A stretch of DNA of 64,000 nucleotides from Anaerolineales bacterium (GCA_025057645.1 JANXBJ010000007.1:46664-110663); one strand, 5' to 3'; numbered from the stretch's first letter, positions 1-29,567 are shown. Translations and numbers: made by a program. Notes: a model not told the origin generated them from the letters alone.

Positions 1-216
1 CAGATTATCAAGAAATACTCCCACTGGATCACCGATGAGCGCAAGATGGCTTTGGCGAAACCCGACGCCATCTACATGCATCCTTTACCGGCCGATCGCA
101 ATATTGAGGTCACTGACGGGGTGATTGACGGCCCCCAATCGGTAGTTTACGATGAGGCCGAAAATCGCTTACATGTTCAAAAAGCAGTGATGGCTTTGAC
201 CATGGGAGGGATCTAA
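1..216 (+). CDS. Carbamoyltransferase, C-terminal fragment (gene starts upstream of window)
   Basis: Frame 1 is open from the window edge to TAA at 214-216. The translation ...[49 protein letters not shown] carries the HxLP and NRLHxQKA C-terminal signatures of transcarbamylase-fold enzymes. It is paralogous to 42987-43979 (66 of the last 84 nt identical by my count). Confidence 0.8.
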
Positions 217-217
217 A

Positions 218-1177
218 ATGGCCGAGAAGAAAGTTGCTGTAGTTGCAATCGGTGGAAACTCGTTAATCAAGGATGAACAGCGCAAGACTGTCGAGGATCA
301 GTACGAAGCCGCAAAAGAGACAACCTATCATATCGCCGACATGATCGAAGCCGGATGGGACGTGGCTATTGGCCACGGAAACGGGCCCCAAGTGGGCTTT
401 ATCCTGCGTCGGTCGGAGATTGCCGCAAAAGTTGAGGGTATGCACGAGGTGCCTTTGGATGTGTGTGGGGCAGACACGCAAGGCGCCATTGGTTACGCCC
501 TCCAACAAACGCTGCAAAACTGGCTGCACAAGCGCGGCATCAAGAAGCCCGTTGCCACAGTGGTCACTCAGGTCCTGGTGGACAAAGACGATCCTGCCTT
601 TAAGAACCCCACCAAACCCATTGGCAGTTTTATGGATGCCGAGGAAGCCCAACGGCGCGCCCGAGAAATGGGATGGAACGTAGTCGAGGATGCAGGACGG
701 GGTTGGCGACGCGTGGTTGCCTCACCCCTGCCAAAAGAAGTGGTCGAATTTGATGCGGTTAAGATCCTTATTGACGCCGGCGCAGTAGTAATCACCGTGG
801 GCGGCGGCGGCATCCCTGTAATCGATGTAGGTGACCGGGAATACCGCGGTGTGGCGGCAGTGATCGACAAAGACTATGCCAGCAGTTTGCTGGCCCGAAA
901 GCTGAACGCAGACCTCTTCCTGATCTCGACCGCCGTGGAGAAAGTGGCACTGAACTTCGGTAAACCCAATCAACAGTGGGTTGACCGCATGACTCTTTCC
1001 GAGGCAAAGAAATACCTTGACGAAGGCATTCATTTCGCAAAAGGCTCGATGGCGCCAAAGGTTCAGGCGATCATCTGGTATTTAGAGGCCGGCGGCAAGC
1101 ATGCGATCATCACCAATCCAGAAAACATCGGGCGGGCGCTGCGCGGCGAAACCGGCACTCATTTTGTGCCGGACTAG
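218..1177 (+). CDS. arcC: Carbamate kinase
   Basis: 319-aa ORF starting 1 nt after the upstream stop. The AVVAIGGNSL and GHGNGPQVG motifs and the overall length are typical of carbamate kinase (amino-acid kinase fold). Confidence 0.9.
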   Translation: MAEKKVAVVAIGGNSLIKDEQRKTVEDQYEAAKETTYHIADMIEAGWDVAIGHGNGPQVGFILRRSEIAAKVEGMHEVPLDVCGADTQGAIGYALQQTLQNWLHKRGIKKPVATVVTQVLVDKDDPAFKNPTKPIGSFMDAEEAQRRAREMGWNVVEDAGRGWRRVVASPLPKEVVEFDAVKILIDAGAVVITVGGGGIPVIDVGDREYRGVAAVIDKDYASSLLARKLNADLFLISTAVEKVALNFGKPNQQWVDRMTLSEAKKYLDEGIHFAKGSMAPKVQAIIWYLEAGGKHAIITNPENIGRALRGETGTHFVPD

Positions 1178-1441
1178 GGAGGCAGTAACCCAATCGGGAC
1201 CGGGCTTGAGAACAAGCGCTAAGGCTAATCAAGCTGGTTCGGGAACCCCGGTCCTCGTTGCGGGTTGTTGGCTTGGTAAAAAATCAAGTCGCATTAACAT
1301 AGTCTCCATAAAAGCGTTTATAATTTAGGTATGCTGGGAGAAAGGAGGTGCCAAGGCGAGAGAAAAGCAAGCATAGAGACTACTTTTCCCAAACCCTTTC
1401 GCTAGAAGTTCTTAGAGAGACTAGTAAGAGGAGAAGGTAAA

Positions 1442-2755
1442 ATGGCATCGAAAACACTTCTGCGTATCCTTGGTGTCTTTCTTGTGCTGAGCCTGCTTCT
1501 CGTGGCTTGCCAACCCCAAGCTCCTGCTCAGCCCCAGGAGGAGCCCCAACAATCGGAGCAAACTCCACCACCCGGCGCTCAACAAGCAGCCGAACAACCC
1601 CAACAACCCCCTCAACCAGTACAAGTAACTGAACCTGCCAAGAAAATCAAGGCATGCTATATCTACGTTGGCCCGATCGGCGACCTGGGTTGGACTCACG
1701 CTCACGATGTTGGTCGGCGTTATGTGGATGACCGTTACGATTGGCTAGAAACTCTCTACGTTGAGAGCGTTGCCGAAGCCGACTCGGCTCGTTTCATCGA
1801 TCGCTTTGTGGTCGAAGAGAAATGCGATGTCGTTTTCACCACTTCTTTCGGCTACATGGATGATACCCTGAAAGCCGCGCAAAAGTATCCGGACAAGATT
1901 TTCGTGCACGTCTCGGGCTTTAAGCGTGCTCCGAATATGGCTACCATGATGGCCGATTTCTACCAAATTTACTATCTGAATGGCCTCATGGCAGGGGCCC
2001 TAACCAAATCGGGCAAGATCGGTTACGTCGCCGCTCACCCCATCCCAGAGGTGGTGCGCCACATCAATGCGTTCACTCTCGGCGTGCGCGAAGCTAAACC
2101 CGAAGCCACAGTGGAAGTGCGCTGGCTCTACTCATGGTATGACCCGGCGAAAGCTCGAGAAGCCGCAGAATCTCTGATCGCAAACGGAGTGGATATCCTC
2201 GCTTTCACCGAGGATAGCCCCGCGGTCGTTCAGGTCGGCGAAGAATACACCACCCAGAAGAACCAACCCGTTTATACCTTCAGCCACTATAGCCCCATGC
2301 ATGACTACGGTCCGAACTCGGTAATAAGCGGACAGCTCGTTAATTGGGGCCTGATCTACGAAGATATTTTGACCAAAATCTACCTAGGGATCTATAACAA
2401 CACCAATCTAGAGAATGTAGATTACTGGGGGCTCCTCAGCGGTGGTTGGCAACTGGGAGCACCTTCGGCCGTCGAATTGGGCGCCCGTTTCGGAGAGCCG
2501 ATCAACCCCAAGTTCGAATCCGCCCTTAAGGAATACAAGGTCAACGAGAAGTATCTCGGTGAGATCAGCATCTATGACCTCGTCTTTAAGCGCATCGAGC
2601 AAATGCGCGACCCGGCCTTGCTCTTCGATCCGTTCACCGGCCCAATTAACGACCAGACTGGGACACAACGAGTCAAGGATGGACAACGCCTCTCCTACCT
2701 CGAGCTAACCACCATCGATTGGTTTGTCGAGGGCGTGATCGGAGAGCCGAAGTAA
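1442..2755 (+). CDS. BMP-family (PnrA/Med-like) ABC substrate-binding lipoprotein, probable nucleoside binder
   Basis: Signal peptide with lipobox LLVAC, then a Q/P-rich tether, then a BMP-type core (CYIYVGPIGDLGWTHAHD...). SD AGGAGAAGG lies just upstream of the ATG. Confidence 0.85.
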   Translation: MASKTLLRILGVFLVLSLLLVACQPQAPAQPQEEPQQSEQTPPPGAQQAAEQPQQPPQPVQVTEPAKKIKACYIYVGPIGDLGWTHAHDVGRRYVDDRYDWLETLYVESVAEADSARFIDRFVVEEKCDVVFTTSFGYMDDTLKAAQKYPDKIFVHVSGFKRAPNMATMMADFYQIYYLNGLMAGALTKSGKIGYVAAHPIPEVVRHINAFTLGVREAKPEATVEVRWLYSWYDPAKAREAAESLIANGVDILAFTEDSPAVVQVGEEYTTQKNQPVYTFSHYSPMHDYGPNSVISGQLVNWGLIYEDILTKIYLGIYNNTNLENVDYWGLLSGGWQLGAPSAVELGARFGEPINPKFESALKEYKVNEKYLGEISIYDLVFKRIEQMRDPALLFDPFTGPINDQTGTQRVKDGQRLSYLELTTIDWFVEGVIGEPK

Positions 2756-2775
2756 ATCTACAACAAGCGCTATTG

Positions 2776-2802
2776 GAGGGAGGGGAAGTTAGCCCCTCCC
2801 TC
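2776..2802 (+). promoter_or_regulatory. Intercistronic stem-loop after the binding-protein gene
   Basis: gagggagggg (2776-2785) pairs perfectly with cccctccctc (2793-2802) around a 7-nt loop. There is no strong T-tract. It sits between the SBP and ATPase genes. Confidence 0.5.
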
Positions 2803-2829
2803 ATTTCCTGACGCCACCCGGAGGCTTCA

Positions 2830-4359
2830 ATGTCTGAAGTTCCCACTGCAGTCTTGATGAAAGGGATTACCAAGCGCTTTGCTGGGGTTGTAGCGAATTC
2901 AAACATCGACTTTGAAGTGCGAGAGGGCGAGATCCATGCCTTGTTGGGCGAAAACGGAGCAGGGAAGACCACGTTAATGAATATTCTGTACGGCATTTAT
3001 CGTCCGGATGAAGGAGAAATTTATATTTACGGCAAGAAAGCCCACATTCACTCTCCCAAGGATGCAATCGCCCTCGGAATTGGGATGGTTCACCAGCAAT
3101 TTCGCCTTGTTCAAACCCACACGGTGGTTGAGAACATCGTTTTAGGGACCGGCAACGGCCTGAGGTTCGAGGAAGAGGAAGTCCGACAAAAAATCGTCGA
3201 TCTGGCTCAACGATACAGCCTTGCAATTAACCCTGATGCTCGGATTTGGCAGCTCTCTGCCGGCGAGCAGCAGAGGGTAGAAATTCTGAAGGCTCTCTAC
3301 CGGGGAGCAAAGATTCTCATTTTAGACGAGCCGACCTCAATGTTGACCCCGCTGGAAATCAAAGAGCTACTTCAAACTCTGAGACGAATGACCGAGGAGG
3401 GGAACACAATCATCTTTATTACCCACAAACTGGACGAAGTTACCGCGGTCAGCCACCGTGTGACTATCCTTAGACAAGGGAAAGTCACCGCCGTGCTCGA
3501 AACCGCCAAAACCAACAAAGTTCAGCTCGCCAATCTAATGGTAGGGAGGGAGGTGCTGTTCCGCCTAGAAAAGCCCTCTGTCGAGCGCGGTTCTGAGGTG
3601 CTGAGAGTGGAAGGGTTGGAGGCTCTAAGCGATAAAGGGCTCATTGCGGTGAATAATGTCTCTTTCACTGTGCATCGAGGAGAGATTCTGGGCATTGCGG
3701 GCGTAGCCGGAAACGGTCAGCGTGAGTTACTTGAGGTGATTGCGGGCCTGCGTCCCGCAACACGGGGGAAAATCTTTATCAACGGGGTCGAAGCCACTCG
3801 CTCTTCCATCAGGGAACGCATTAACATGGGCATGTCTTATGTCCCCGGTGAACGGATGACGGCTCTTGTCCCCAATATGAGTATCGCCGAAAACATGATC
3901 TTAAAGTCCTATCGCACTGCCCCGATTTCGAAAGGAGCGTTCATCGACCGCCGGGAAATGCTGAATTTAGCCCAGCGCTTAATCCAGGAGTACGAGGTAA
4001 TCACGCCGGGACCGGAAAAGCCGGTCAAGTTACTGTCGGGCGGCAACATTCAACGAGCGCTGATGGCGCGCGAGCTATCCCAGCAAGTGGATATCCTCGT
4101 GGCGGCTTACCCAACCAGTGGTCTCGACGTAGGCGCCATCGAGACGATATGGAGAATTCTGCTCTCGCAACGACCTCTGGGTAAAGCCATTTTGTTGGTT
4201 TCAGACGATCTTGAGGAAATCCTGACCTTGAGCGATCGAGTGGCAGTGATGCATAATGGCGAAATTATGGGCATTGTTGAACCCAAGGAGGAGAATCTGG
4301 AGAAAATTGGCCTCATGATGGCCGGCGCGCTGAAACTAGAGCAGGAGCAATGGGTATGA
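2830..4359 (+). CDS. ABC transporter ATP-binding protein with duplicated ATPase domains (nucleoside/sugar type)
   Basis: Walker A GENGAGKTT, signature LSAGEQQRVEI, Walker B ILILDEPT. The second half has LSGGNIQRALM. 509 aa. Confidence 0.9.
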   Translation: MSEVPTAVLMKGITKRFAGVVANSNIDFEVREGEIHALLGENGAGKTTLMNILYGIYRPDEGEIYIYGKKAHIHSPKDAIALGIGMVHQQFRLVQTHTVVENIVLGTGNGLRFEEEEVRQKIVDLAQRYSLAINPDARIWQLSAGEQQRVEILKALYRGAKILILDEPTSMLTPLEIKELLQTLRRMTEEGNTIIFITHKLDEVTAVSHRVTILRQGKVTAVLETAKTNKVQLANLMVGREVLFRLEKPSVERGSEVLRVEGLEALSDKGLIAVNNVSFTVHRGEILGIAGVAGNGQRELLEVIAGLRPATRGKIFINGVEATRSSIRERINMGMSYVPGERMTALVPNMSIAENMILKSYRTAPISKGAFIDRREMLNLAQRLIQEYEVITPGPEKPVKLLSGGNIQRALMARELSQQVDILVAAYPTSGLDVGAIETIWRILLSQRPLGKAILLVSDDLEEILTLSDRVAVMHNGEIMGIVEPKEENLEKIGLMMAGALKLEQEQWV

Positions 4360-5432
4360 GCGTCAAGGTCCGCATCGAGCGACGACTAGAGGTCTCCCGA
4401 ACGACTCAAATCGGATCCATTCTTCTCTCTCTGCTTCTCTCTTTCGTGGTGATTGCGGTCATTTTTTCTTTCCTTGGGGTAAATCCTCTGAACGCCTACC
4501 GGCGCATCTTGATCGGGGGCTTCGGCTCTCTTTACGGCTTATCCGAGTCGGTTGCCAAGTCCATTCCGCTCCTTCTCGCCGGGGCAGGGTTAGCGCTCTC
4601 CTTTAAGGCGCGGGTTTACAACATCGGAGCGGAGGGCCAAATTTTGCTCGGAGCGATCGTAGGAGGTGGAATTGGGCTGGCCTGGCCAGACCTACCTCGA
4701 GGATTGTTGTTGCCCCTGATGTTTCTCGGAGGTTTTCTTGGCGGAGCCCTCTGGGCGCTAATCCCCGCCCTGCTGAAGACCCGCTTCCGAGTTGATGAAG
4801 TTCTGACCAGCTTGATGTTGGTTTACATCGCTAGCGATCTGGTAAGATACCTCGTCTACGGTCCATGGCGAGGAGCGGAACAACGCGGGTTTCCCTATTC
4901 CTCTCCGTTTTCTCTCTCAGCACAACTTCCCCACTTGGGCACGACGCGAATTCACTACCCCACTCTAATCGTGGCTCTCCTTCTCACCCTGGCAATTTAC
5001 ATTTTGCTCTACTACACCAAGCTAGGCTACGAAATCCGCGTTGTAGGGGAGAACCCCGCTGCAGGACGTTATGCCGGGATGAGCGTAGAAAGAGTGATCC
5101 TCTTCGTGCTTGTGCTTAGCGGAGGCTTGGCCGGCTTAGCGGGAGTGGGTGAGGTTGCGGGTATCCACGCCCGCTTGGGCCCTCCGGAAGGGATTTCGCC
5201 CGGCTATGGCTTTACCGCTATCATCGTTGCGTGGCTCGCACGGCTGAATCCCTTGCTGACCGTACTCACGGCCTTCTTTATGGGAGGACTATTAGTCGGA
5301 GGAGACGCAATTCAGACAGCCTTGAACCTGCCTTCGGCAACCATTTTCATCTTCAATGGGGTTATCCTGTTCTTTATCATTGCTGCCGAATATTTGACCA
5401 ATTACCGCGTCAAAGTGGAGGTGGTCAAGTGA
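4350..5432 (+). CDS. ABC transporter permease (BMP/CUT2-type)
   Basis: 360-aa polytopic hydrophobic ORF. The start overlaps the upstream stop (ATG 4350, or ATGA overlap at 4356). Confidence 0.85.
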   Translation: MGMSVKVRIERRLEVSRTTQIGSILLSLLLSFVVIAVIFSFLGVNPLNAYRRILIGGFGSLYGLSESVAKSIPLLLAGAGLALSFKARVYNIGAEGQILLGAIVGGGIGLAWPDLPRGLLLPLMFLGGFLGGALWALIPALLKTRFRVDEVLTSLMLVYIASDLVRYLVYGPWRGAEQRGFPYSSPFSLSAQLPHLGTTRIHYPTLIVALLLTLAIYILLYYTKLGYEIRVVGENPAAGRYAGMSVERVILFVLVLSGGLAGLAGVGEVAGIHARLGPPEGISPGYGFTAIIVAWLARLNPLLTVLTAFFMGGLLVGGDAIQTALNLPSATIFIFNGVILFFIIAAEYLTNYRVKVEVVK

Positions 5433-6349
5433 TTGATTTTATCGTTTCGGTCTTGACTTTGACCATCCCCGCCGGGACGGCACTGCTGTTAGGTACCCTA
5501 GGAGAGGTCTACGCAGAGCGATCGGGGGTGCTCAACTTAGGTGTGGAAGGAATGATGATCATGGGGGCAGTAACGGGATTCGCCGTCACTTTTGCGACCA
5601 AGAACGTGGTGCTTGGAATCTTGGCAGCCAGCTTAGCTGGCATCCTGATGTCTTTGATCCACGCCTATTTCTCGATCACCTTACGGGTTAATCAGGTTGT
5701 CTCAGGGTTAGCCCTGACCATGCTGGGCTTAGGGATCAGCGGTTTGCTGGGCAAACAGTTCATCGGGATGCCACTTCCGGTGCGTCTTCAGCCGGTTCAC
5801 GTCCCCGTCCTAAGTGATTTGCCCATCCTTGGGGAATTTTTCAGGTTTAACATTTTGGTCTACATCTCTATTCTCCTTGTCCCTCTTCTCTCCTTTTTCC
5901 TCTACAAGACCAACTGGGGCATTGTGCTTCGATCGGTTGGAGAAAACCCAGCCGCAGCAGATGCCATGGGAGTGAATGTCTTCCTCGTCCGTTACCTTGC
6001 GGTGATGTTCGGCGGCCTGATGGCCGGATTGGCCGGGGCTTTCCTTTCTGTGGCTTACGCACCGGCTTGGATCGAGGGGATGACTGCGGGAGCGGGATGG
6101 ATCGTGATCGCTTTGACCATTTTCTCGCTCTACGATCCAACCCGAGCTATGCTCGGCGCTTACCTATTCGGCGGGGTGCGCGTCCTTCAATTTCGCCTCC
6201 AGCCCCTAGGAATCCCGGCGAATCTCTTGAACATGTTACCCTTCTTGGTGACGATTTTGGTTTTGGTCTTGATTTCAGAGCAGGCTTTTCGAAGACGGAT
6301 TGGTGTGCCCGCCGCTCTGATGCAACCCTACTCGCGGGAGGAGAAGTAA
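5429..6349 (+). CDS. ABC transporter permease (second subunit)
   Basis: The track ORF 5231-6349 is trimmed to the in-frame GTG at 5429, which overlaps the upstream TGA by 4 nt. From there the sequence VIDFIVSVLTLTIPAGTALLLG... is a typical permease N-terminus. Confidence 0.8.
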   Translation: MIDFIVSVLTLTIPAGTALLLGTLGEVYAERSGVLNLGVEGMMIMGAVTGFAVTFATKNVVLGILAASLAGILMSLIHAYFSITLRVNQVVSGLALTMLGLGISGLLGKQFIGMPLPVRLQPVHVPVLSDLPILGEFFRFNILVYISILLVPLLSFFLYKTNWGIVLRSVGENPAAADAMGVNVFLVRYLAVMFGGLMAGLAGAFLSVAYAPAWIEGMTAGAGWIVIALTIFSLYDPTRAMLGAYLFGGVRVLQFRLQPLGIPANLLNMLPFLVTILVLVLISEQAFRRRIGVPAALMQPYSREEK

Positions 6350-6352
6350 CCT

Positions 6353-7606
6353 GTGAGTCGCTTTCTCGGCTATCGTTGTTCCCTTTGTCAGCGTGAGTAC
6401 TTAGAAAGCCAAGTTCAGTACACCTGCCCGAAGGATGGTGGGAACTTAGATGTAGCCCTAGATGTAGACCACATTCGGAAGTTTGTCTCACCCGGCCAGA
6501 TCTTTGCCCAAGCTGAGCCTTCGATCTGGCGTTACCTTCCCTTGCTGCCGGTTGACGACCCCGGTTTTGAAGGGACTCCGCTGCATCGTGTTGGCTGGAC
6601 TCCCACCTTTGAAACTCCTCGCTTGGCCGAAGAATTGGGTTTGAAAACCCTGTGGGTCAAAGACGAGAGTCGCAACCCCACCGCCTCCTTTAAGGACCGC
6701 GCCAGCGCAGTCGTTGTCACCCGAGCAAGAGAGATCAAGGCAGAAGTGGTCGTAACTGCGTCTACGGGAAATGCAGGCGCAGCGCTGGCCGGGATGGCCG
6801 CGGCCATCGGGCAAAAAGCGGTCATCTTTGCACCGAGAACCGCTCCCCCTGCCAAAGTGGCTCAACTGCTGGTTTTCGGTGCACAGGTGATCCTAGTGGA
6901 CGGCAATTACGATAGCGCTTTCGATCTGACCATCCAAGCTGCCCGGGAATTCGGTTGGTATTGTCGCAACACCGGCTACAACCCCTTCACCGCCGAAGGA
7001 AAGAAGACCGCAGCCTTTGAAATCTGGGAATGGTGGGAGAAAACGCGTCGCCAACATCCTCAATTTAGCCGCTTGAATGTGTTTGTCTCCGTTGGGGACG
7101 GTAACATCATCTCCGGCCTCCATAAGGGCTTCAAGGACTTGCTCGCTCTAGGGTGGATCGAGCAAATGCCGCGCATCTTTGGCGTCCAGTCCACCGGTTC
7201 TGCGGCGATTTACAATGCCTTCCAAGCCGGCACGGAACAGATCACGCCTGTCATAGCGAACACCCTAGCGGATTCGATCTCGGTCGATCTCCCTCGGGAC
7301 GGAGTGCGCGCCGTGCGCGCAGCGCGAGAAACCGGCGGCCGTTATCTCGCCGTGGAAGACGAAAAAATCCTCGAAGCCATCGCCTCTCTGGGAAAGGTAG
7401 GGATTTTCGCCGAACCGGCCGGAGCCACCTCCTACGCCGGTTTAGTTCAGGCGGTTCAAGCCGGATGGATTGGGGAGGAAGACGCAGTGGTGGTGCTTAA
7501 CACCGGCAGCGGCTTGAAAGACATCAAAGCGGCCATGCAAGCAGTTCCCCAAGCACCCGTTATCGAACCGACTCTCAGCGCATTGACGAAGCATCTTTAT
7601 GGATAG
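6353..7606 (+). CDS. Threonine synthase-like fold-type-II PLP enzyme
   Basis: N-terminal Cys-x2-Cys...Cys-P zinc-ribbon-like segment. PLP-lysine motif TASFKDRAS. 417 aa. GTG start preceded by GGGAGGAG. Confidence 0.75.
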   Translation: MSRFLGYRCSLCQREYLESQVQYTCPKDGGNLDVALDVDHIRKFVSPGQIFAQAEPSIWRYLPLLPVDDPGFEGTPLHRVGWTPTFETPRLAEELGLKTLWVKDESRNPTASFKDRASAVVVTRAREIKAEVVVTASTGNAGAALAGMAAAIGQKAVIFAPRTAPPAKVAQLLVFGAQVILVDGNYDSAFDLTIQAAREFGWYCRNTGYNPFTAEGKKTAAFEIWEWWEKTRRQHPQFSRLNVFVSVGDGNIISGLHKGFKDLLALGWIEQMPRIFGVQSTGSAAIYNAFQAGTEQITPVIANTLADSISVDLPRDGVRAVRAARETGGRYLAVEDEKILEAIASLGKVGIFAEPAGATSYAGLVQAVQAGWIGEEDAVVVLNTGSGLKDIKAAMQAVPQAPVIEPTLSALTKHLYG

Positions 7607-8603
7607 AAGAGCAGAGACGACCCCAGAAATTTCCGTGATTGCACCGGTATATAACGAAGTTCAATCTCTGCCAGAATTCTACCGCAGAGTGCGACAAGTC
7701 CTGGATGGATTGGGCTTGAGCTGGGAGCTGCTTTTGGTCGACGACGGTTCGACTGACGGTTCAACCGAACTGATCCGCCACTTTGCTAAAGAGGATCGCC
7801 GGGTGCGCCCGCTGATCTTTGCTCGCAACTTCGGCCATCAACTAGCAGTGACGGCAGGATTGGATTATTGCCGTGGCCGAGCTGCGATTGTCCTTGACTC
7901 CGATCTGCAGGACCCCCCGGAAGTCATGGCAGAACTAATTGCCAAATGGCGTGAGGGATATGAAGTGGTTTACGCCATCCGCTCTGAACGGGAAGGAGAG
8001 AGCTGGTTTAAGCTGCTCACCGCTTCCCTCTTCTATCGGCTAATCTACCGGATTACGGATGTCAAAATCCCCCTGGACACCGGTGACTTCCGTCTGCTGG
8101 ACCGCCAAGTGGTCAAAGTATTAAGAAGAATGCGCGAGCGGCACCGCTTTCTGCGCGGTATGTCGGCTTGGGTCGGGTTCCGGCAGACTGGCGTCCACTA
8201 CCGCAGGGCAGCTCGATTTGCCGGGCAGACCAAATATCCTCTGCGAAAGATGATTAAATTCGCCAGTGATGCGATCACCAGCTTCTCCTATTTGCCGCTC
8301 CAGCTAGCCACCTACCTAGGATTTGCAGCAGCCGGCCTGAGCATCTTAGCCATCCCCATTGTCGTCATCTTGCGCCAATCGGGGATGCAGGCATTTCTAG
8401 GGCAAGCCACGACTCTGATTGCGGTCTTATTCCTAGGGGGAGTACAGCTTATCTCCCTCGGCATCCTAGGAGAGTACATCGGACGACTCTATGACGAAGC
8501 CAAAGGTCGACCATTGTATATTCTAAGAGAAGCCCCCGAGCAAGACGGGGCAAAAGAGCCTGAAGAGCTTGAAAATGAATTCTCGGCAACCGAGCTCTCT
8601 TGA
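7599..8603 (+). CDS. GT2 glycosyltransferase, polyprenyl-phosphate sugar transferase type
   Basis: ISVIAPVYNE, LVDDGSTDGS and DSDLQD (DxD) motifs, with two C-terminal TM helices. The start overlaps the upstream gene by 8 nt. Confidence 0.85.
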   Translation: MDRRAETTPEISVIAPVYNEVQSLPEFYRRVRQVLDGLGLSWELLLVDDGSTDGSTELIRHFAKEDRRVRPLIFARNFGHQLAVTAGLDYCRGRAAIVLDSDLQDPPEVMAELIAKWREGYEVVYAIRSEREGESWFKLLTASLFYRLIYRITDVKIPLDTGDFRLLDRQVVKVLRRMRERHRFLRGMSAWVGFRQTGVHYRRAARFAGQTKYPLRKMIKFASDAITSFSYLPLQLATYLGFAAAGLSILAIPIVVILRQSGMQAFLGQATTLIAVLFLGGVQLISLGILGEYIGRLYDEAKGRPLYILREAPEQDGAKEPEELENEFSATELS

Positions 8604-8632
8604 AACTCAATCTTGTGCAAAGGAGAAACTCT

Positions 8633-10099
8633 ATGGCGAAGATCGACTTGACGGTAATTCCCGAACGGCGCAAGCGAGCGGTGCAGCGTGTTCGCGAGCG
8701 CAATATTATCATCCCTACCTTTGCTCAAATGAAGGACCCCTCCCTGATCCCGGAAAAAATCAAGAATGAGCTAAAAGAAATTGGGTTATGGGACCTCAAC
8801 CCCCGCAACCTCTTCCGCATCACTTGGAAAAACGAGCCGGTGGAAAAGGGTGGGGGGTTTGGCAAAGTGAATTTCATCGAGCTGCCCTCTTCCCTAACCG
8901 GGGTGCCGGCGCGCATTATCGCTCTCGTAGGCAAATGGTTTCCCACGGGGGCACATAAGGTTGGCGCAGCGTTCGGTTGCCTCGTACCGCGTCTGGTTAC
9001 CGGGCAATTCGACCCCACCACGCAAAAAGCGGTTTGGCCATCCACGGGCAATTATTGTCGCGGCGGTGCCTATGACTCAGCACTTTTAGCTTGCGAGTCG
9101 ATCGCAATCTTGCCCGAGGGGATGAGCCGTGAACGTTTTGAGTGGCTCTCTAGAATCGCCGGTGAAGTCATTGCCACTCCCGGCAGCGAGTCAAATGTAA
9201 AGGAAATCTTCGATAAATGCTGGGAATTGCGCCGCTCTGGCCAAGACCTAATGATCTTCAATCAATTCGAGGAGTTTGGCAATTATCTCTGGCACTATGA
9301 GATCACCGGCCACGCTATGGAAGAGGTTCTCAAAGACACGATGCGCCCGAAAGATCGCTACTTCGGAATGGTCTCCGCTACGGGTTCGGCCGGGACCATT
9401 GCCAGCGGAGATTATATGAAACAGCTCTTCCCGGCAAGCAAGATTTGCGCCAGCGAGGCCCTTCAGTGCCCTACACTCCTCGAGAACGGCTTTGGCGCCC
9501 ACCGCATCGAAGGGATCGGGGATAAACACGTGCCTTGGATTCACAACGTCAAAAACACAGATTTGGTTGTTGCCATTGACGACAACGCAGTAGTCAACCT
9601 AGCCCGACTCTTCAACGAACCAGCAGGACGGGCATACCTTGTGAAAAGGGGTGTTCCGGAGCATATCGTCCAGAATCTGGACCTGCTCGGTTTTTCAGGC
9701 ATTTCGAACATTCTCTCTGCAATTAAGATGGCCAAATACTATGAATTAGGAGAGAACGACATCGTGTTGACTGTGTTGACTGACTCAATGGAGCTATACG
9801 GCAGCCGGCTGAAAGAGATGCGAGAGGAATTCGGCGAGTACACCGAACTCGATGCCGCAGCTCATTTTGCCCAATACTTACTCGGTCAATCCACCGACAA
9901 TATGCTGGAACTTCGTTATGTCGACCGACGACGGGTTCACAACCTCAAGTACTTTACTTGGGTTGAACAACAAGGGAAGACCTACGAGGAGATTCTCGAT
10001 CAGTGGTATCAGCCCACCTACTGGACCGACATTCAAAATCAAGTCGAAGAGATCGACGCTCTGATCGAGGAATTCAACCGAGATGTGGGGCTTATCTAG
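8633..10099 (+). CDS. Fold-type-II PLP-dependent enzyme (TrpB/CysK superfamily), specific function unknown
   Basis: PTGAHKVGAAF lysine motif and the glycine-rich SATGSAGT loop are typical of the tryptophan-synthase-beta/cysteine-synthase fold. The start is moved to ATG 8633, which is preceded by AAGGAG. Confidence 0.65.
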   Translation: MAKIDLTVIPERRKRAVQRVRERNIIIPTFAQMKDPSLIPEKIKNELKEIGLWDLNPRNLFRITWKNEPVEKGGGFGKVNFIELPSSLTGVPARIIALVGKWFPTGAHKVGAAFGCLVPRLVTGQFDPTTQKAVWPSTGNYCRGGAYDSALLACESIAILPEGMSRERFEWLSRIAGEVIATPGSESNVKEIFDKCWELRRSGQDLMIFNQFEEFGNYLWHYEITGHAMEEVLKDTMRPKDRYFGMVSATGSAGTIASGDYMKQLFPASKICASEALQCPTLLENGFGAHRIEGIGDKHVPWIHNVKNTDLVVAIDDNAVVNLARLFNEPAGRAYLVKRGVPEHIVQNLDLLGFSGISNILSAIKMAKYYELGENDIVLTVLTDSMELYGSRLKEMREEFGEYTELDAAAHFAQYLLGQSTDNMLELRYVDRRRVHNLKYFTWVEQQGKTYEEILDQWYQPTYWTDIQNQVEEIDALIEEFNRDVGLI

Positions 10100-10143
10100 G
10101 TAGTCCCTACGCCACCGGCATCGACCGATGCCCTAGGCAGCCC

Positions 10144-10178
10144 AAAGCGTCCGAAAGCTGTGCTTTCGGACGCTTTTT
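10144..10178 (+). terminator. Rho-independent terminator
   Basis: Perfect 14-bp stem aaagcgtccgaaag / ctttcggacgcttt with a 5-nt loop, running into T5. It begins 45 nt after the stop of 8633-10099. Confidence 0.85.
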
Positions 10179-10220
10179 CCTTATGCAGACAATGCCTTAT
10201 CTCCGAGTATAATAAACCCT

Positions 10221-10799
10221 GTGCTAGATCCAAGTGCTTTAATCCTCGTTGCCATTCTAAAATCACCCCGCGACCTAGAAATTGCTCGCGTATTAGGGTG
10301 GTACCGCATTCCGATGCGTTCGGCACCCAAAGTGATCCCGGTGGATTACTTGGCACTATATCAGACCGCTGCCTTCGGGAAGGCTAAGTGGCGCATCGAA
10401 TATATAGCCGAAATTCGCGGGGTAGAACTGACCACCCGAGGCGAGTTGTTGCAAAATGAGTTGGACCACCCCTACGCCAATCAAGAATACTACAAAGTCC
10501 AACTTGGACCGCTAGTTTCCCTTGAAAATCCGCTACCGGTGGGACGATGGAAGCGGATCACCTTCTTCTATACCCTAGGGGAGTACTTCCTGCGCGCAAA
10601 GAGTGTCGATGACCTAATTCTGGCGGAAGGAGACCGCGCCGGTGTATGGCGGGCTCTGCGTGAACGGAATACCCAAGCATACCCCAGTGGAAAGCCAGAG
10701 GAATCAGAAACCGAACTCTCCCCAACGTTACTAGCAGCTCTCCTGGGGATTGCTGGAGCCTGGAAGGTCTATTCCAAAAGTTCAGAGAGAGGTGTGTGA
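10221..10799 (+). CDS. Hypothetical protein (no family recognised)
   Basis: 192-aa ORF with a GTG start. No motif I can assign (…ARVLGWYRIPMRSAP…). Its stop overlaps the start of the hydantoinase gene. Confidence 0.6.
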   Translation: MLDPSALILVAILKSPRDLEIARVLGWYRIPMRSAPKVIPVDYLALYQTAAFGKAKWRIEYIAEIRGVELTTRGELLQNELDHPYANQEYYKVQLGPLVSLENPLPVGRWKRITFFYTLGEYFLRAKSVDDLILAEGDRAGVWRALRERNTQAYPSGKPEESETELSPTLLAALLGIAGAWKVYSKSSERGV

Positions 10800-12226
10800 T
10801 GAACGGTAGTCGACCAATCTTGATTAGGAACGTGGATGTCCTCACTGCGAGCGAAAAATTCCGCGCAGATATCTTGGTTGTAGGCGAGAAAATTCATACC
10901 ATAGGAGTAGACATTCCCACAGAAAATTGCGAAATAATCGATGGCAGTGGTCTCACAGCAATGCCGGGAGGAGTAGACGTACACACTCACTTCGATTTAC
11001 CGATGTTTGGGACGGTATCCAGCGATGATCACTATACCGGCCATAAGGCTGCAGCTTTCGGTGGAACCACCACGGTGATCGACTTCGTTCCCCTAGACAA
11101 GCCCACTCTAGAGGAAAGCATTGCTGCTTGGCGGGAGAAAGCCGACCCCAAAGCCGCCATTGACTTCAGTTTCCACATGAACATCTCCCGCTGGAACGAG
11201 ACTATCGCTAGGGAGATCCCCCGTTTGGTAGATTGGGGAATCCCTTCGATCAAGGTCTTCACGGCATACAACAACCGTTTGCGCATCAGCGATGGCGAAA
11301 TTTTCTCGGCTATGCGCATCGCCAAAGAGTACGGCATCCTAACTATGTTGCATGCCGAGAACGGCGACGTGATCGAAACCCTCGTCCAAGAGGCTTTGTC
11401 CCAAGGCAAAACCACCCCAGAATGGCATGCCCACACTCGACCAAGCTGGGGGGCTGTGGAAGCCACTCTGCGCGGTATTGCCCTAGCAGCGCAAAGCGGT
11501 GCTCCGCTCTATATCGTGCATATGAATGCCGGTGGCGAGGTTGACCAGTTAGCCTACGGACGTGAAAAGGGTGTGCCTGTGATGGGCGAAACTTGCCCTC
11601 AATACCTTTTCTTTACGGTAGAGCACCTGCGACGGCCGGATGGTGCCAAGTGGGTTTGTTCACCCCCGATGCGAACGCCAGAAGACAACGAAAGGCTTTG
11701 GCAGGGCTTAGCTCAGGGAATCTTGCAGACGGTAGGGACCGACCACTGTCCCTTCTTCTACGACGGCACTCGACCGATTCTTTATGAAGGAAAGCCAATC
11801 GCCATCCCTGGCAAGGAGTTAGGCAAGGATGATTTCACCAAGATCCCAAATGGCTTGCCCGGCGTCGGTGATCGCTTGCCCATCCTTTGGACCTACGGCG
11901 TGCGCACCGGAAAAATCTCCGAAAACCAATTTGTAGCCCTCAACTGCACTAACCCGGCGAAAATCTTCGGTCTATATCCTCAAAAAGGAGCTCTTCTTCC
12001 CGGCTCAGATGCCGACATCGTTCTCTGGGATCTCAACAAAAAGCTCACCTATGGGGTAGCGGTGGCACAACACCGCACCGACTACAATTTATACGAAGGA
12101 TGGGAGTTGGTCGGCTACCCCGTCAAGGTGTTCCTCAGAGGACAGTTGATCGTGGATGGCGATCAATGGCTCGGCAAAGCAGGACAAGGCCGCTTCCTTA
12201 AGCGCACACCCGGAACAGTGCTCTAA
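10796..12226 (+). CDS. Dihydropyrimidinase / D-hydantoinase (cyclic amidohydrolase)
   Basis: GGVDVHTHF metal motif, GGTTTVIDF, PSIKVFTAY (carboxylated-Lys region), HAENGD and GTDHCPF. The alternative ATG at 10799 overlaps the upstream TGA. Confidence 0.9.
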   Translation: MMNGSRPILIRNVDVLTASEKFRADILVVGEKIHTIGVDIPTENCEIIDGSGLTAMPGGVDVHTHFDLPMFGTVSSDDHYTGHKAAAFGGTTTVIDFVPLDKPTLEESIAAWREKADPKAAIDFSFHMNISRWNETIAREIPRLVDWGIPSIKVFTAYNNRLRISDGEIFSAMRIAKEYGILTMLHAENGDVIETLVQEALSQGKTTPEWHAHTRPSWGAVEATLRGIALAAQSGAPLYIVHMNAGGEVDQLAYGREKGVPVMGETCPQYLFFTVEHLRRPDGAKWVCSPPMRTPEDNERLWQGLAQGILQTVGTDHCPFFYDGTRPILYEGKPIAIPGKELGKDDFTKIPNGLPGVGDRLPILWTYGVRTGKISENQFVALNCTNPAKIFGLYPQKGALLPGSDADIVLWDLNKKLTYGVAVAQHRTDYNLYEGWELVGYPVKVFLRGQLIVDGDQWLGKAGQGRFLKRTPGTVL

Positions 12227-12236
12227 CTCCAAGTTT

Positions 12237-13784
12237 ATGATCCCCTCTTTCTTCCTAGCAGGCGCGGTTTTCCTGCCATTTCTGGCAGGGGTGGCGGTGA
12301 TGATTTCCCGAGCGAGCAAAGCTAGGCTGGGTTTGCAGTGGATGTTGGCTTTCCTAGGGGTCGCCCTAAGTTGGCTATTCCTATTTGGGTTGCGCTTTTC
12401 CTTGCCACACTCTCTTTCCCTGGCAACTTGGCAGCCTCAAATCCTCTTTCCGCTCTCTCCGGAGTTGCTGGCCGATGGGTTTTCGTGGGCTGTAGCTCTG
12501 GCCTTAGCCACTGCAGGGGGCGCGGTGCTCCTCACCGAAGCAACTAACCCTTCGGGGAGTCTGGTCTTCGGGTGGACCTCTAGCCTCATCTTACTTGGGC
12601 TGGGCTTGTTCGCAGTCTTTGCCGGCAACGAACTCACCCTTCTACTGGCCTGGGCGGCGATCGATCTGGTTGAGCTAGGAATTTGGCTCAGCCGACCTGC
12701 GCAACCGACCTTGCGCGAGCGGGTGATTTTGGCTTTTTCCTCTCGGACATTTGGGGTGATGCTCGCTTTGTGGGGGTTAGGCAGTCCCTGGGCCTACGGG
12801 CTTTCGATCTTGCTGCGTTGGGGAGTGTTTCCTTTTCACCTCCCTTATTTGGAGTCTCAAGAACTCCGCCGCGGCTTGGGCACAATAATCCGCCTCGTTC
12901 CGCCCTTGACAACCATTCCGCTACTTGCCCGCCTCGCAGACTACGCTTATTTCCAAACCCAAGAAGGCATTGGGCTATTGATCAGCCTAATTAGCCTTGC
13001 TGCAACTATCTTGTGGCTTAACAGCACCCAGCCTCTCGAGGGGCGCCCTTTTTGGATTATCGCCACTGCAGCGTTTGCCTTCTATGCTGCAACGATCAAC
13101 CGTCCCGAAGCCGTTATCGCCTGGGGGATGATCCTCGCCTTTTGTGGAGTTTTGTTATTCGTCTTCGAGAGTCGGCCCCGCCTTTGGCCGGTCGGCATTG
13201 GCGCGCAAATGCTTTTGCTGCTTGGTTTACCTTTCACACCGTTTTGGGACATACTCCGAATCTACCGTTCAGAATGGACTCTGCCCGAAGTCCTGCTTTC
13301 CCTTTCCCACCTGTTCCTAGCTGCGGGCTACCTACGATTCCTGCTGCAAAAGCCTGATGTGCCTCTTCCCGGAGAGCCTTGGGGAAAAGCCCTGTACCCG
13401 CTGGCTTTCTACGCTACGCTTGGAGTGTCTGTCGCAATCGGATACGGGGGTTGGAGAAGCACACTCGAAACAGCTCTGGAGAGTCCCTATCTCGTTCTGC
13501 GCACTCCGCTCGACTATCTTCTCGGACTCGGGCTAAGCCTTGCAGGGATCGGATTTGCGTTCGGTGCCAAGCAGCTCCACCTCAAACGGCAGTTTCCCGC
13601 AGCCTGGGTCGATCTCCTCTCCCTCGAGTGGATATACCAAGCCCTACGATGGAGCTTTCATCAACTCGGCACGCTTTACCGCCAAGTTGAAACGATTCTG
13701 GAAGGGAGAGGTGGGCTTTTGTGGGCATGGGTGGTCTTGCTCCTCCTTTTCCGAACTTTCTCCCTGCTGAGTAGAGGGGAATAG
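12237..13784 (+). CDS. Polytopic membrane protein, divergent NuoL/M/N (antiporter-like) fold suspected
   Basis: About 14 hydrophobic segments. GVFPFHLPYL resembles the PFHxWLP segment of proton-conducting subunits, but the usual charged residues are absent. The start at ATG 12237 is uncertain (no SD). Confidence 0.5.
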   Translation: MIPSFFLAGAVFLPFLAGVAVMISRASKARLGLQWMLAFLGVALSWLFLFGLRFSLPHSLSLATWQPQILFPLSPELLADGFSWAVALALATAGGAVLLTEATNPSGSLVFGWTSSLILLGLGLFAVFAGNELTLLLAWAAIDLVELGIWLSRPAQPTLRERVILAFSSRTFGVMLALWGLGSPWAYGLSILLRWGVFPFHLPYLESQELRRGLGTIIRLVPPLTTIPLLARLADYAYFQTQEGIGLLISLISLAATILWLNSTQPLEGRPFWIIATAAFAFYAATINRPEAVIAWGMILAFCGVLLFVFESRPRLWPVGIGAQMLLLLGLPFTPFWDILRIYRSEWTLPEVLLSLSHLFLAAGYLRFLLQKPDVPLPGEPWGKALYPLAFYATLGVSVAIGYGGWRSTLETALESPYLVLRTPLDYLLGLGLSLAGIGFAFGAKQLHLKRQFPAAWVDLLSLEWIYQALRWSFHQLGTLYRQVETILEGRGGLLWAWVVLLLLFRTFSLLSRGE

Positions 13785-13787
13785 GGC

Positions 13788-14414
13788 TTGAGCCAGCAAT
13801 GGGTAAGCTTTCTGGGTGTTCTCCTTGCTGTCGGGGCTGCCCTATATAATCTCATTTCTTCGGACTGGCGTTGGAGAATGCTAGCGCTTGGGGTTCAAGG
13901 GATCGGCTTCTTTCTGCTCTGTTTTCAAAGTCTCTCGCTTGGATTGTCTCTGGTGAAGTTCATCGAGAGTTGGACAGCGGTGGCGATCATCGGCACAGCT
14001 TTGGCGAATACAGCCCGTAATCCTGCCCGGGGAAGATCGGTGGAGAGAGAGACAAGCGGTCCTTTTCATTTTCCGTTTTCTGCGAGGGCATTCCGCCTTG
14101 CAATGGCCGTCCTTATCGGCATAGCGCTTCCCCAAGCAGTCTGGCACTTAATGTCTCTGTTCGGCGGCCTTGGCTTCTTCCATGCTATAGCTGCTCTCGC
14201 ACTCAGTAGCATTTCTCTGCTGATTTTGAGCTTTCGGACCTCCACCCTTTCGATTGCGATTGGACTGCTCACATTTTTCCAAGGTTTCGAAATCCTTTTT
14301 GCTGCGATCGAACCCTCGCTCATGCTTACCGGTCTACTGGCGGCTATCGTCTTGAGCACGGCCTTCCTTTGCGCTTATTTCCTTCGGGTGGAAGAGGAGC
14401 GTCAAGCCCGATGA
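13788..14414 (+). CDS. Small polytopic membrane protein, C-terminal half NuoK/MrpC-like (tentative)
   Basis: 208 aa with a TTG start 4 nt after the upstream stop. The GFEILFAAIE segment resembles the GLEIMINA helix of NuoK. Confidence 0.4.
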   Translation: MSQQWVSFLGVLLAVGAALYNLISSDWRWRMLALGVQGIGFFLLCFQSLSLGLSLVKFIESWTAVAIIGTALANTARNPARGRSVERETSGPFHFPFSARAFRLAMAVLIGIALPQAVWHLMSLFGGLGFFHAIAALALSSISLLILSFRTSTLSIAIGLLTFFQGFEILFAAIEPSLMLTGLLAAIVLSTAFLCAYFLRVEEERQAR

Positions 14415-15820: not shown

Positions 15821-15908
15821 GGCGGAGTTAATGGGCAGTCCAGGACTTGGACGATTCCTGTCCACCTCTATTTACCAAAGTCCAAAGGACTCTGAGGGGG
15901 TATGCCCG

Positions 15909-15917
15909 TGCTATAAT
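15909..15917 (+). promoter_or_regulatory. Extended -10 promoter element (TGcTATAAT)
   Basis: tgctataat at 15909-15917, about 40 nt upstream of the AAGGAG-preceded ATG at 15958. Confidence 0.45.
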
Positions 15918-15957
15918 CGACTCAAGAAACCTTCACCGCTTATGCCAAGGAGCCTTG

Positions 15958-17133: not shown

Positions 17134-17142
17134 AGACAACAA

Positions 17143-26701: not shown

Positions 26702-27454
26702 ATGGACATCCAGGGTAAGACAGCCCTCATCACAGGCGGAGCCCAGCGAGTGGGCAGAGCCCTTACTCTGGCCCTCGCCCGCGCAGGGGCCAACGTTGTG
26801 ATCAACTACCATAACTCAAAGGAAGCAGCTCTAGCAACTGCTCAAGAGGCCTCCACATTCGGAGTGCAGACGCTTGCCATTGGTGCGGATATCTCGGACC
26901 ACCGACAAGTGCTGCGCATGGCCGAAGAGGTGTCCGAACGCTTCGGCGGGGTCGAAGTTCTTGTGAACAGCGCTTCGATCTTCAAAGCCACCCCCTTCCC
27001 CAATCCCGACATTACTGATTGGTTGCGAGTCACCGGAGTCCTGATCAACGGCGCTTATTATTGTGCCAACGCTTTTGCGCCCTATATGCTCCAAAAAGGA
27101 GAGGGGGTGATTATCAACATTGTGGATCTGTCCGCTTGGGAGCCTTGGCCCGACTTTTCTGCCCACAGCGTAGGAAAAGCAGCGCTCTTGGCCTTGACAC
27201 GGCAGCTTGCCTTGGAGTTGGCTCCTAAGGTGCGGGTCAACGCCATTGCCCCGGGGCCGGTACTGCCGCCTTTGAATTATTCTCCAGAACGAATTGCCCG
27301 CACGGCCGAGAAGACGCTCCTCGGTCGTTGGGGCAGTCCCGAAGATGTGTGCAAGGCGTTGCTTTTCCTGATAGAATCAGACTACATTACCGGTCAGGCC
27401 ATCATCGTAGATGGCGGTGAGTTCTACGGTCATCGCAAACTTGAACCCGCCTAG
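26702..27454 (+). CDS. SDR oxidoreductase, FolM/PTR1 (pteridine reductase)-like
   Basis: ITGGAQRVGRA cofactor loop, NIVD (Asp at the usual Ser position, as in PTR1/FolM), VRVNAIAPG. His replaces Tyr in the YxxxK position (HSVGK). Confidence 0.65.
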   Translation: MDIQGKTALITGGAQRVGRALTLALARAGANVVINYHNSKEAALATAQEASTFGVQTLAIGADISDHRQVLRMAEEVSERFGGVEVLVNSASIFKATPFPNPDITDWLRVTGVLINGAYYCANAFAPYMLQKGEGVIINIVDLSAWEPWPDFSAHSVGKAALLALTRQLALELAPKVRVNAIAPGPVLPPLNYSPERIARTAEKTLLGRWGSPEDVCKALLFLIESDYITGQAIIVDGGEFYGHRKLEPA

Positions 27455-27463
27455 GAGCAAAGA

Positions 27464-28252: not shown

Positions 28253-28260
28253 GGTAAGTC

Positions 28261-29549: not shown

Positions 29550-29567
29550 ACACAACCCTTCGACAAA

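Follow-up and report, generated by a model that had tools for sequence, protein, structure and literature searches.

We analysed a 64,000-nt stretch of the genome of an Anaerolineales bacterium (GCA_025057645.1, JANXBJ010000007.1:46664-110663; hereafter the window), the first 12,226 nt of which encode, all on the plus strand, a carbamoyltransferase (CT2), a carbamate kinase, an ATP-binding cassette (ABC) importer, two fold-type-II pyridoxal phosphate (PLP) enzymes and a hydantoinase. Our results suggest that this locus, locus 1, is probably the lower, ATP-conserving half of reductive purine breakdown, in which PLP enzymes take the place of YgeX. The Anaerolineae locus is a variant of a pathway described in 2025 and not a new kind of system, and no description of this particular arrangement was found in the searchable literature. 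The order of the published pathway is XdhD, YgfK, SsnA, HyuA and YgeW, followed by YgeY and YgeX (PMC12507026, PMC12990295), and YgeW together with YqeA makes ATP from 2,3-diureidopropanoate (bioRxiv 10.1101/2025.04.24.650524).

In the scheme that we favor, the importer would take up purine bases, which deaminases and molybdenum hydroxylases would funnel to urate or 2,8-dioxopurine. Reduction and opening of the ring would be encoded elsewhere, partly in a large gene array at 36.9-63.4 kb of the window, and a hydantoinase would then yield 2,3-diureidopropionate. The YgeW-like CT2 would phosphorolyse a ureido group to carbamoyl phosphate, from which carbamate kinase would make ATP, CO2 and NH3, and one or both PLP enzymes would convert the remaining diamino/ureido amino acid to pyruvate and ammonia in YgeX's stead. 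We infer the substrates of CT2, including 2,3-diureidopropionate as the compound phosphorolysed, those of both PLP enzymes, and the role of the hydantoinase. An earlier interpretation made from the DNA without database searches (the sequence-only reading) had proposed an ATP-conserving step and perhaps a YgeX substitute at this locus, and overall that interpretation is partly supported by the analysis described here.

CT2 and carbamate kinase

The window opens with the last 71 codons and the stop of CT2 (1-216, frame 1, ending ...TMGGI*; Pfam OTCace E 7e-23), and carbamate kinase follows at 218-1177, the CT2 stop TAA at 214-216 being separated from the kinase ATG at 218 by 1 nt, just as the sequence-only reading had described. 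Whole-protein scores for CT2 come from full-length orthologues, which are 85-93% identical across the Anaerolineae, the window itself holding the last 71 residues. The best solved match to CT2 is the ornithine carbamoyltransferase (OTC) of Pyrococcus furiosus, relative to which DVWASMG has become YAKSWGA and HCLP has become HPLP; HPLP is kept in 119 of 120 homologues and KSWG in all 120. The full-length orthologue from L002, one of the related loci introduced below, falls below both OTC cut-offs (TIGR00658, 256.4 against 280.85; NF001986, 259.3 against 306). CT2 and its paralogue in the array have two features in common with E. coli YgeW that ArgI lacks, a KSW motif and an insertion reading WAYxxSYxKP(L/M)SVPQ, and CT2 is 36% identical to YgeW versus 32% to ArgI. 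In a simple neighbor-joining distance tree with few references (ArgI, PyrB and YgeW), CT2 and the array paralogue fell into the clade of YgeW and not with ArgI. CT2 is shorter than YgeW (330 versus 396 aa), and we file it as YgeW-like and not as YgeW because its scores, like that of the array paralogue (213 against 500), lie far below the YgeW family cut-off.

We rejected the assignment of CT2 as a standard OTC or arginine deiminase enzyme, the case that the sequence-only reading had named as speaking against itself, on motifs, cut-offs and context. A carbamoyltransferase followed by carbamate kinase, with ATP obtained from carbamoyl phosphate, is shared with the arginine deiminase pathway (ArcA, catabolic OTC, ArcC), but here both arginine deiminase and the arginine/ornithine antiporter are missing, as are the ornithine-binding motifs, and the context is one of purine genes. 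Gene calls were read for the loci of six relatives and include neither arcA nor arcD; the census of 80 loci described below did not search for either.

The carbamate kinase passes both of its family models (TIGR00746, 382.5 against 358.25; NF009007, 420.8 against 266) and is 53% identical to E. coli YqeA. The claim that it occurs only at locus 1 was borne out, there being no second match to a carbamate kinase within 64 kb, and because it is the sole one in the window the array carbamoyltransferase (42987-43979) would also be served by it. The paralogy of the two carbamoyltransferases likewise stands, the CT2 fragment being 68% identical to the C-terminus of the array protein and a full-length CT2 orthologue 52% identical to it. 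In C. sporogenes and Collinsella, too, carbamate kinase is encoded away from the cluster (bioRxiv 10.1101/2025.04.24.650524).

Gene order in the Anaerolineae

When one genome per species was scanned, close relatives of CT2 turned up in at least 530 genomes; 80 loci were kept and the reference proteins were mapped onto them. A separate set of metagenome loci was anchored on the second PLP enzyme, PLP2 (64 loci, 41 of them with enough flank and 17 with the full flank). The genes are commonly arranged as FolD, an 8-oxoguanine-deaminase-like amidohydrolase, adenine deaminase, a GntR/UTRA regulator, sometimes YgeY, a second carbamoyltransferase that is ATC-like (CT1), CT2 and carbamate kinase. Carbamate kinase follows CT2 in 73 of 75 loci and CT1 lies 5' of CT2 in 67 of 74, while the upstream genes were scored in 53 loci (GntR in 50, the 8-oxoguanine-deaminase-like gene in 39 and adenine deaminase in 34). 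The relatives' amidohydrolase passes NF006055 (687-698 against 532) and their adenine deaminase passes TIGR01178 (509 against 472). Homologues of CT2 and of the first PLP enzyme, a ThrC-like protein, come almost exclusively from the Anaerolineae (Chloroflexota).

Since this order is conserved in relatives, the window starts mid-way in a larger conserved operon, and, judged by gene order, positions 1-10099 are predicted to be the distal two-thirds of an operon that is conserved throughout the class Anaerolineae. The sequence-only reading had seen here a second, split copy of the pathway ends; this view misplaces the emphasis, as the locus is a class-wide core that continues upstream of the window and does not duplicate parts of the array. 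CT1 and GntR would be expected upstream of the window in the source genome; the expectation is drawn from relatives because the sole contig with an exact match, in GCA_025057515.1, which has an identical carbamate kinase, starts later than the window. Among the loci fetched there was no near-identical relative at the nucleotide level.

A type-B lineage (L018, L019, L027, L035, L044, L053, L054, L057, L074 and L077) has neither the importer nor the glycosyltransferase that is embedded in locus 1, and its order is CT1, CT2, carbamate kinase, ThrC-like, PLP2. In type-B and type-C loci PLP2 comes after carbamate kinase, directly or behind the ThrC-like gene, and in L101 and L126 it adjoins xanthine dehydrogenase (XDH) operons. 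In L169 (788-21242 of a 439-kb contig) one strand carries GntR, a three-subunit XDH, GntR, YgeY, CT1, CT2, carbamate kinase, the ThrC-like gene, PLP2, an alpha/beta hydrolase, YgfK, SsnA and a second XDH, with YgeY at 449 against a cut-off of 321, YgfK at 898 against 835 (TIGR03315) and SsnA at 460 against 444 (NF005540). The clusters of L074 and L053 resemble that of L169, and a true YgfK is present in all three. YgfK and SsnA are markers of the reductive (2,8-dioxopurine) urate pathway. YgeX was found in none of the 80 loci. Runs of the L169 type are the strongest evidence that CT2 and carbamate kinase may act like YgeW and YqeA, with the PLP pair in the position of YgeX. Since L169 has neither a hydantoinase nor YgeX, its alpha/beta hydrolase may take a ring-opening or ureido-cleaving step.

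These comparisons bear on two proposals of the sequence-only reading. An ATP-conserving pair of carbamoyltransferase and carbamate kinase fits the context seen in relatives, which comprises adenine deaminase, the 8-oxoguanine-deaminase-like protein, GntR, YgeY, XDH, YgfK and SsnA. The idea of a YgeX substitute gains support from the PLP orthologues, which stay with carbamate kinase where the importer and the glycosyltransferase are absent and lie between YgeY and YgfK/SsnA in L169.

The PLP enzymes

The ThrC-like protein (6353-7606; PALP E 5e-78) has a Cys-rich N-terminal extension and scores 185.2 against 167.1 with the threonine synthase profile TIGR00260 and 261.9 against 303 with NF006050. 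Its homologues are 72-87% identical; it is 52% identical to its type-B orthologue, each being more than 80% conserved inside its own lineage. The two proteins can be aligned well to four solved threonine synthases, and the PLP lysine (SFKDR) is retained in each, but three positions invariant in the four solved enzymes are altered: STGNT has become STGNAG, NPxRxEG has become NPFTAEG (NPYMSEG in the type-B orthologue) and VGNAGN has become VGDGN. The T, R and N of the solved enzymes are thus replaced by A, T (M in type B) and D, and the replacements are fixed in 120 of 120 homologues. We take these positions to be Thr88, Arg160 and Asn188 of the substrate-phosphate site of Thermus threonine synthase. 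If this assignment is right, the losses and the gained Asp would suit a substrate with an amino or ureido group instead of a phosphate. The case for a housekeeping threonine synthase at 6353-7606 is weakened by these changes, and the ThrC-like protein is a candidate for the lyase of the pathway.

PLP2 is a 488-aa protein encoded at 8633-10099 (the reading frame is open from 8600; PALP E 2e-10). Its probable start at ATG 8633 has AAGGAG 7 nt upstream, and homologues align from residue 12. Profiles place it only remotely near CysK/CBS, its lysine motif (GAHK) is TrpB-like, and it is extended by about 90 aa at each terminus; its score with the CysK model TIGR01139 is 85.8 against a cut-off of 350.95, and the best solved matches are cysteine synthases (E 1e-15). 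Neither protein is a YgeX orthologue, and none exists in the window, as the sequence-only reading had stated. With YgeX profiles the ThrC-like protein scores 57 against 532 (TIGR03528) and 69 against 276 (NF006058), and a tblastn search of the window with E. coli YgeX gave a single match, 31% identical over 140 residues; for PLP2 there was no match.

The tandem partner CT1

CT1, seen in relatives only, passes the cut-off of the aspartate carbamoyltransferase (ATCase) model TIGR00670. It keeps STRTR, Arg105, HPTQ and Arg167, and it has HSLP, with Arg229 and Gln231 replaced by Pro and Val. In ATCase these two residues bind the aspartate beta-carboxylate. Arg229 and Gln231 are part of an ATCase-specific motif that is lost in pseudo-ATCases (PMC4016543). 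Among the latter, subgroup 1 is the ureidoglycine carbamoyltransferase of Rubrobacter, which is encoded beside carbamate kinase and acts on allantoate/ureidoglycine; subgroup 2 is found in Nocardioides JS614 beside a ygeW homologue, xdhABC and hyuA (Barba et al. 2013, PMC4016543); and subgroups 2 and 3 have no known activity. CT1 is like the pseudo-ATCases in having HSLP, in the loss of RxQ and in its position, amid purine genes, beside carbamate kinase and a YgeW-like gene. The replacement of RxQ (PVV, or VEP with a shift of two) agrees with the motifs of subgroup 3, whereas the gene context fits subgroup 2.

In L078 and L084 YgeY occupies the usual place of CT1 between GntR and CT2, and CT1 is absent; L084 is just 5.7 kb long and gives little context. 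These loci offer a hint that CT1 may be a phosphorolytic alternative to the hydrolase YgeY, although several loci carry both. In L005 (12150-14186), L006 (7930-9900), L030, L039, L040 and L043 a protein of 656-678 aa with no Pfam or NCBIfam match is encoded between CT1 and CT2 or after carbamate kinase; the window does not contain it.

The importer, the hydantoinase and the identity of the substrate

A concern about any assignment made from a carbamoyltransferase and a carbamate kinase is that the pair could serve another ureido compound in a separate ATP-yielding pathway that is independent of the array, either reductive breakdown of pyrimidines or hydantoins or phosphorolysis of allantoate/ureidoglycine. 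In the pyrimidine/hydantoin version a dihydropyrimidinase would give an N-carbamoyl amino acid, from which the carbamoyltransferase would release carbamoyl phosphate for the kinase to convert to ATP. With carbamoyltransferases, an importer and a regulator of its own, the locus would not need the array, and a pseudo-ATCase of another subgroup does act on allantoate/ureidoglycine in Rubrobacter (PMC4016543); catabolic transcarbamylases for aspartate or beta-alanine have been suggested, though never demonstrated (PMC4581275). The importer and the hydantoinase both bear on this alternative.

The importer is encoded at 1442-6349. It comprises a Bmp-family lipoprotein as binding protein (1442-2755; PF02608 E 8e-38, 130.6 against 24.1; lipobox LLLVAC), an ATPase with two fused ATP-binding domains (2830-4359; two ABC_tran matches, E 5e-51), permease 1 (4350-5432; BPD_transp_2 E 2e-43) and permease 2 (5429-6349; also BPD_transp_2, with the same gene call in L001), whose GTG start overlaps the permease 1 stop (GTGA). 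The best NCBIfam match of the ATPase is a Bmp-type importer ATPase, at 491 bits and below the cut-off. The nearest solved structures to the binding protein, aligned over about 270 residues, are AtzT (6pi5, E 6e-61) and a Brucella protein (3s99, E 1.5e-59), from both of which it differs in that a long linker rich in Gln and Pro follows the lipobox and that about 100 aa are added at the C-terminus. AtzT binds guanine with a dissociation constant of 110 nM and adenine with one of 2.5 uM, uracil and thymine being bound about 5000-fold more weakly than guanine, and adenine was modelled in 3s99 (PMC6834077). Because both of these relatives bind guanine or adenine, the ligand of the importer is likelier to be a purine base than a nucleoside, the class of ligand that the sequence-only reading had given for BMP/PnrA proteins. 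The cassette is poorly conserved between loci and not orthologous, with binding proteins mostly 20-30% identical, so we regard it as a replaceable module.

A second Bmp importer, which the sequence-only reading had passed over at this point, lies at 28410-33420 (binding protein 28410-29549, 26% identical to the first) in a sugar/polyol-like cluster on the plus strand (26702-36951) with two short-chain dehydrogenases/reductases, a DeoC aldolase, a zinc alcohol dehydrogenase and an FGGY kinase; the Bmp importers of this genome are therefore not all for purines.

The hydantoinase, HYD1 (10796-12226), passes the dihydropyrimidinase model TIGR02033 (517 against 393.25), and its nearest solved relatives are Bacillus-type D-hydantoinases, both of which would suit a pyrimidine or hydantoin pathway. 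Its presence in the locus, as claimed by the sequence-only reading, was confirmed, and so was its paralogy with the array hydantoinase (61428-62837, 37% identical); it belongs, however, to a separate transcription unit and is nearer to generic D-hydantoinases than to HyuA. Both hydantoinases of the window are about 39% identical to E. coli HyuA (HYD1, 39%). A role for HYD1 as the equivalent of HyuA is plausible.

On balance we consider that a separate pathway for another ureido compound is unlikely. No dihydropyrimidine dehydrogenase, allantoinase or uricase was present in the relatives' gene calls that were read (the 80-locus census did not search for them), the upstream adenine deaminase and 8-oxoguanine-deaminase-like protein act on purines, type-B loci embed the same genes among YgfK, SsnA, YgeY and XDH, and the binding protein resembles purine binders, of which AtzT discriminates strongly against uracil and thymine.

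Transcription units and embedded genes

A second alternative would limit the purine role to the carbamoyltransferase, carbamate kinase and importer, and would see in the ThrC-like/glycosyltransferase/PLP2 genes and in the u192/hydantoinase genes unrelated housekeeping or envelope genes of a slowly rearranging region. Several features of the locus can be read in this way. The glycosyltransferase (GT2; 7599-8603; Glycos_transf_2 E 7e-30), of the polyprenyl-phosphate type and GtrB/ArnC/PgfS-like, stands between the two PLP genes. Its start overlaps the ThrC-like stop by 8 nt, it has two predicted C-terminal membrane helices, and its NCBIfam matches, PgfS at 264 bits and ArnC-type at 184 bits, are both below cut-off. 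In type-A loci it always lies between the ThrC-like gene and PLP2, and it is absent from type-B loci.

Downstream of PLP2, the top-ranked terminator-like site is an intrinsic-terminator hairpin at 10144-10176 (AAAGCGTCCGAAAGC-TGT-GCTTTCGGACGCTTT-TTCC), with a perfect 15-bp stem, a 3-nt loop and a T-rich tail, which ends the transcription unit of PLP2; HYD1 is thereby placed in a transcription unit apart from that of PLP2. A promoter-like site at 10186-10213 (CAGACA, 16 nt, TATAAT; a consensus match only, at 10 of 12 positions) is the best such match in 1-17500 and lies 8 nt 5' of the open reading frame for u192 (10221-10799), a 192-aa protein without a family. The second transcription unit after the terminator consists of u192, the hydantoinase and three membrane proteins. 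All genes that the sequence-only reading had listed for locus 1 are present, namely the Bmp-type importer, two fold-type-II PLP proteins and the D-hydantoinase in addition to the opening pair; its list had left out GT2, u192 and the terminator, along with the second Bmp importer.

u192 matched nothing in Pfam or NCBIfam, even with the limit relaxed to E <= 1, and a single-sequence AlphaFold model was unusable (pLDDT 35). It is found downstream of PLP2 in 42 of 64 metagenome loci, and HYD1 in 19 of the 41 with enough flank. The 264-nt spacer between carbamate kinase and the importer (1178-1441), inspected by reading the sequence, received no strong promoter or terminator call and is possibly an internal promoter. 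No known RNA or riboswitch was matched in Rfam at E <= 1 in 1-23000, spacers included.

The genes beyond HYD1, on the plus strand at 12237-19068, encode multi-helix membrane proteins of 515 aa and 208 aa without a family and of 483 aa with a weak match to the NuoN/MrpD-type Proton_antipo_M, followed by a 428-aa coiled-coil protein and SelB, and they are syntenic with u192 and the hydantoinase in L089, L130, L145, L158 and L166. The block seen in the PLP2-anchored set accordingly reads ThrC-like, GT2, PLP2, u192, hydantoinase, three membrane proteins, coiled-coil protein and SelB. Further downstream (19110-22124, plus strand) is a 1004-aa chain with three DUF11 repeats, CarboxypepD_reg and a C-terminal sortase domain.

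That the PLP and hydantoinase genes are chance neighbors would thus find support in a syntenic block that reaches the unrelated FolD upstream and the coiled-coil protein and SelB downstream, in the passing TIGR00260 score and the core-enzyme-like conservation (72-87%) of the ThrC-like protein, in the intervening glycosyltransferase, in the terminator that sets the hydantoinase apart, and in the 11 of 17 metagenome loci where PLP2 is remote from CT2 and carbamate kinase. We nevertheless judge this view to be quite unlikely. Rearranged type-B and type-C loci keep the ThrC-like gene and/or PLP2 directly behind carbamate kinase while the importer and GT2 are gone, the same-strand run of L169 puts both PLP genes between YgeY and YgfK/SsnA, and PLP2 stands beside XDH operons in L101 and L126. 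If the PLP genes had no part in the pathway, the step of YgeX, which is missing from the loci examined, would be left unfilled, and the ThrC-like protein is altered at three positions that are invariant in solved threonine synthases.

A third view, that the block is anabolic and that carbamate kinase makes carbamoyl phosphate for an OTC and an ATCase beside threonine/cysteine synthase, as was proposed for the carbamate-kinase-like synthetase of Pyrococcus, could draw on the solved P. furiosus OTC as the best match of CT2, on the passing TIGR00670 score of CT1 and on the core-enzyme-like conservation of CT2 (85-93%), but it is very improbable given that CT2 lacks DxxxSMG and HCLP and fails the OTC cut-offs, that CT1 has lost Arg229/Gln231 and has HSLP as in pseudo-ATCases, that PLP2 reaches 86 bits against a CysK cut-off of 351, and that the neighbors are GntR/UTRA, deaminases, XDH, YgfK and SsnA and not arg, pyr or thr genes.

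Several observations weigh against our preferred reading of locus 1 as the lower half of reductive purine breakdown. The CT2 orthologue lies far below the YgeW cut-offs (TIGR03316, 182.6 against 500; NF005538, 190.8 against 453) and shares only 34-36% identity with that protein. Threonine synthase profiles are passed by the ThrC-like protein (TIGR00260) and by its type-B orthologue (NF006050, 314.7 against 303). The compact type-B clusters carry no hydantoinase, and HYD1, which is preceded by a terminator, resembles generic Bacillus-type D-hydantoinases (3sfw, E 3e-131) more than HyuA. The model of purine breakdown also leaves a mid-operon glycosyltransferase unaccounted for. Much of the FolD-to-SelB order forms a long syntenic block, and part of the adjacency may therefore reflect shared ancestry and not function; CT2 or carbamate kinase lies within 10 kb upstream of PLP2 in 6 of the 17 metagenome loci with the full flank. 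Finally, no YgfK is present in the window and its SsnA relatives are distant, at 24-25% identity.

Relation to the large array and to published clusters

The array (36948-63407, minus strand) encodes three SsnA-like amidohydrolases, the carbamoyltransferase paralogue adjoining YgeY, a luciferase-like F420 reductase, an XDH-like enzyme, a hydantoinase and a PuuR-like regulator. It also contains genes outside the published pathway, namely a UbiD decarboxylase, an aldehyde:ferredoxin oxidoreductase, a GH31 glycosidase, a pyruvate-dehydrogenase-like E1/E2 set and a sugar-type ABC importer. Between them, the two loci encode an XDH-like enzyme and a luciferase-like reductase, along with three distant SsnA-like proteins, a pair each of hydantoinases and YgeW-like proteins, YgeY and carbamate kinase. 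Since the array has neither a carbamate kinase nor a YgeX-like gene, it is reasonable that it would share the kinase and PLP enzymes of locus 1. The two loci may cooperate, as the sequence-only reading had proposed; their intergenic regions have no 11-mer in common. A 540-aa Amidohydro_3 protein (PF07969, E 5e-106) is encoded on the minus strand at 22313-23935 and belongs to the Pfam family of C. difficile UacY, to which we liken it by family only; UacY is a hydrolytic alternative to YgeW (Li et al. 2025).

The Chloroflexota clusters with SsnA described by Li et al. 2025 have a luciferase-like F420 reductase instead of YgfK/UacX, and the array resembles them in its luciferase-like reductase, YgeY, carbamoyltransferase, SsnA-like proteins and XDH. 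That description covers the upper pathway only, and the tandem carbamoyltransferase/carbamate kinase locus, the missing YgeX and the PLP enzymes go unmentioned in it. With the cluster of E. coli and C. sporogenes (xdhD-ygfK-ssnA-hyuA-ygeW-ygeY-ygeX-yqeA) locus 1 shares a YgeW-clade gene adjoining a YqeA-like kinase and a hydantoinase about 39% identical to HyuA; the relatives' genes are contiguous with true YgfK, SsnA, YgeY and XDH, and the expected output would be substrate-level ATP from a ureido intermediate. In contrast to that cluster there is no YgeX, its place being taken by the ThrC-like and CysK/TrpB-like PLP enzymes; the Anaerolineae have a second, ATC-like carbamoyltransferase in tandem (in relatives) and an embedded GT2, and an ABC importer predicted to be for purine bases replaces permeases of the UacT/XanQ type.

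Significance

The tandem of an OTC-like and an ATC-like carbamoyltransferase suggests a division of labor, and it provides candidates for deciding which ureido group a YgeW-type enzyme attacks. We tentatively raise the possibility, in which we have limited confidence, of a reductive purine fermentation that yields two ATP, in which CT1 would take the alpha (2-) ureido group of 2,3-diureidopropionate and CT2 the side-chain (3-) ureido group, with one kinase harvesting both. The 2,3-diaminopropionate formed would be degraded by a repurposed enzyme of the threonine synthase family and/or by the CysK/TrpB-like enzyme, and YgeY would be a hydrolytic bypass. If this were true, the PLP activities would be new.

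The two PLP proteins are also candidates for the replacement of YgeX where it is missing. The ThrC-like family is labelled as threonine synthase in public records, and if its members are catabolic lyases the annotation would be wrong for hundreds of Anaerolineae sequences. The Anaerolineae are abundant fermenters in sediments, digesters and soils, and a class-wide operon leading from purines to ATP would help to explain how they live on cell debris.

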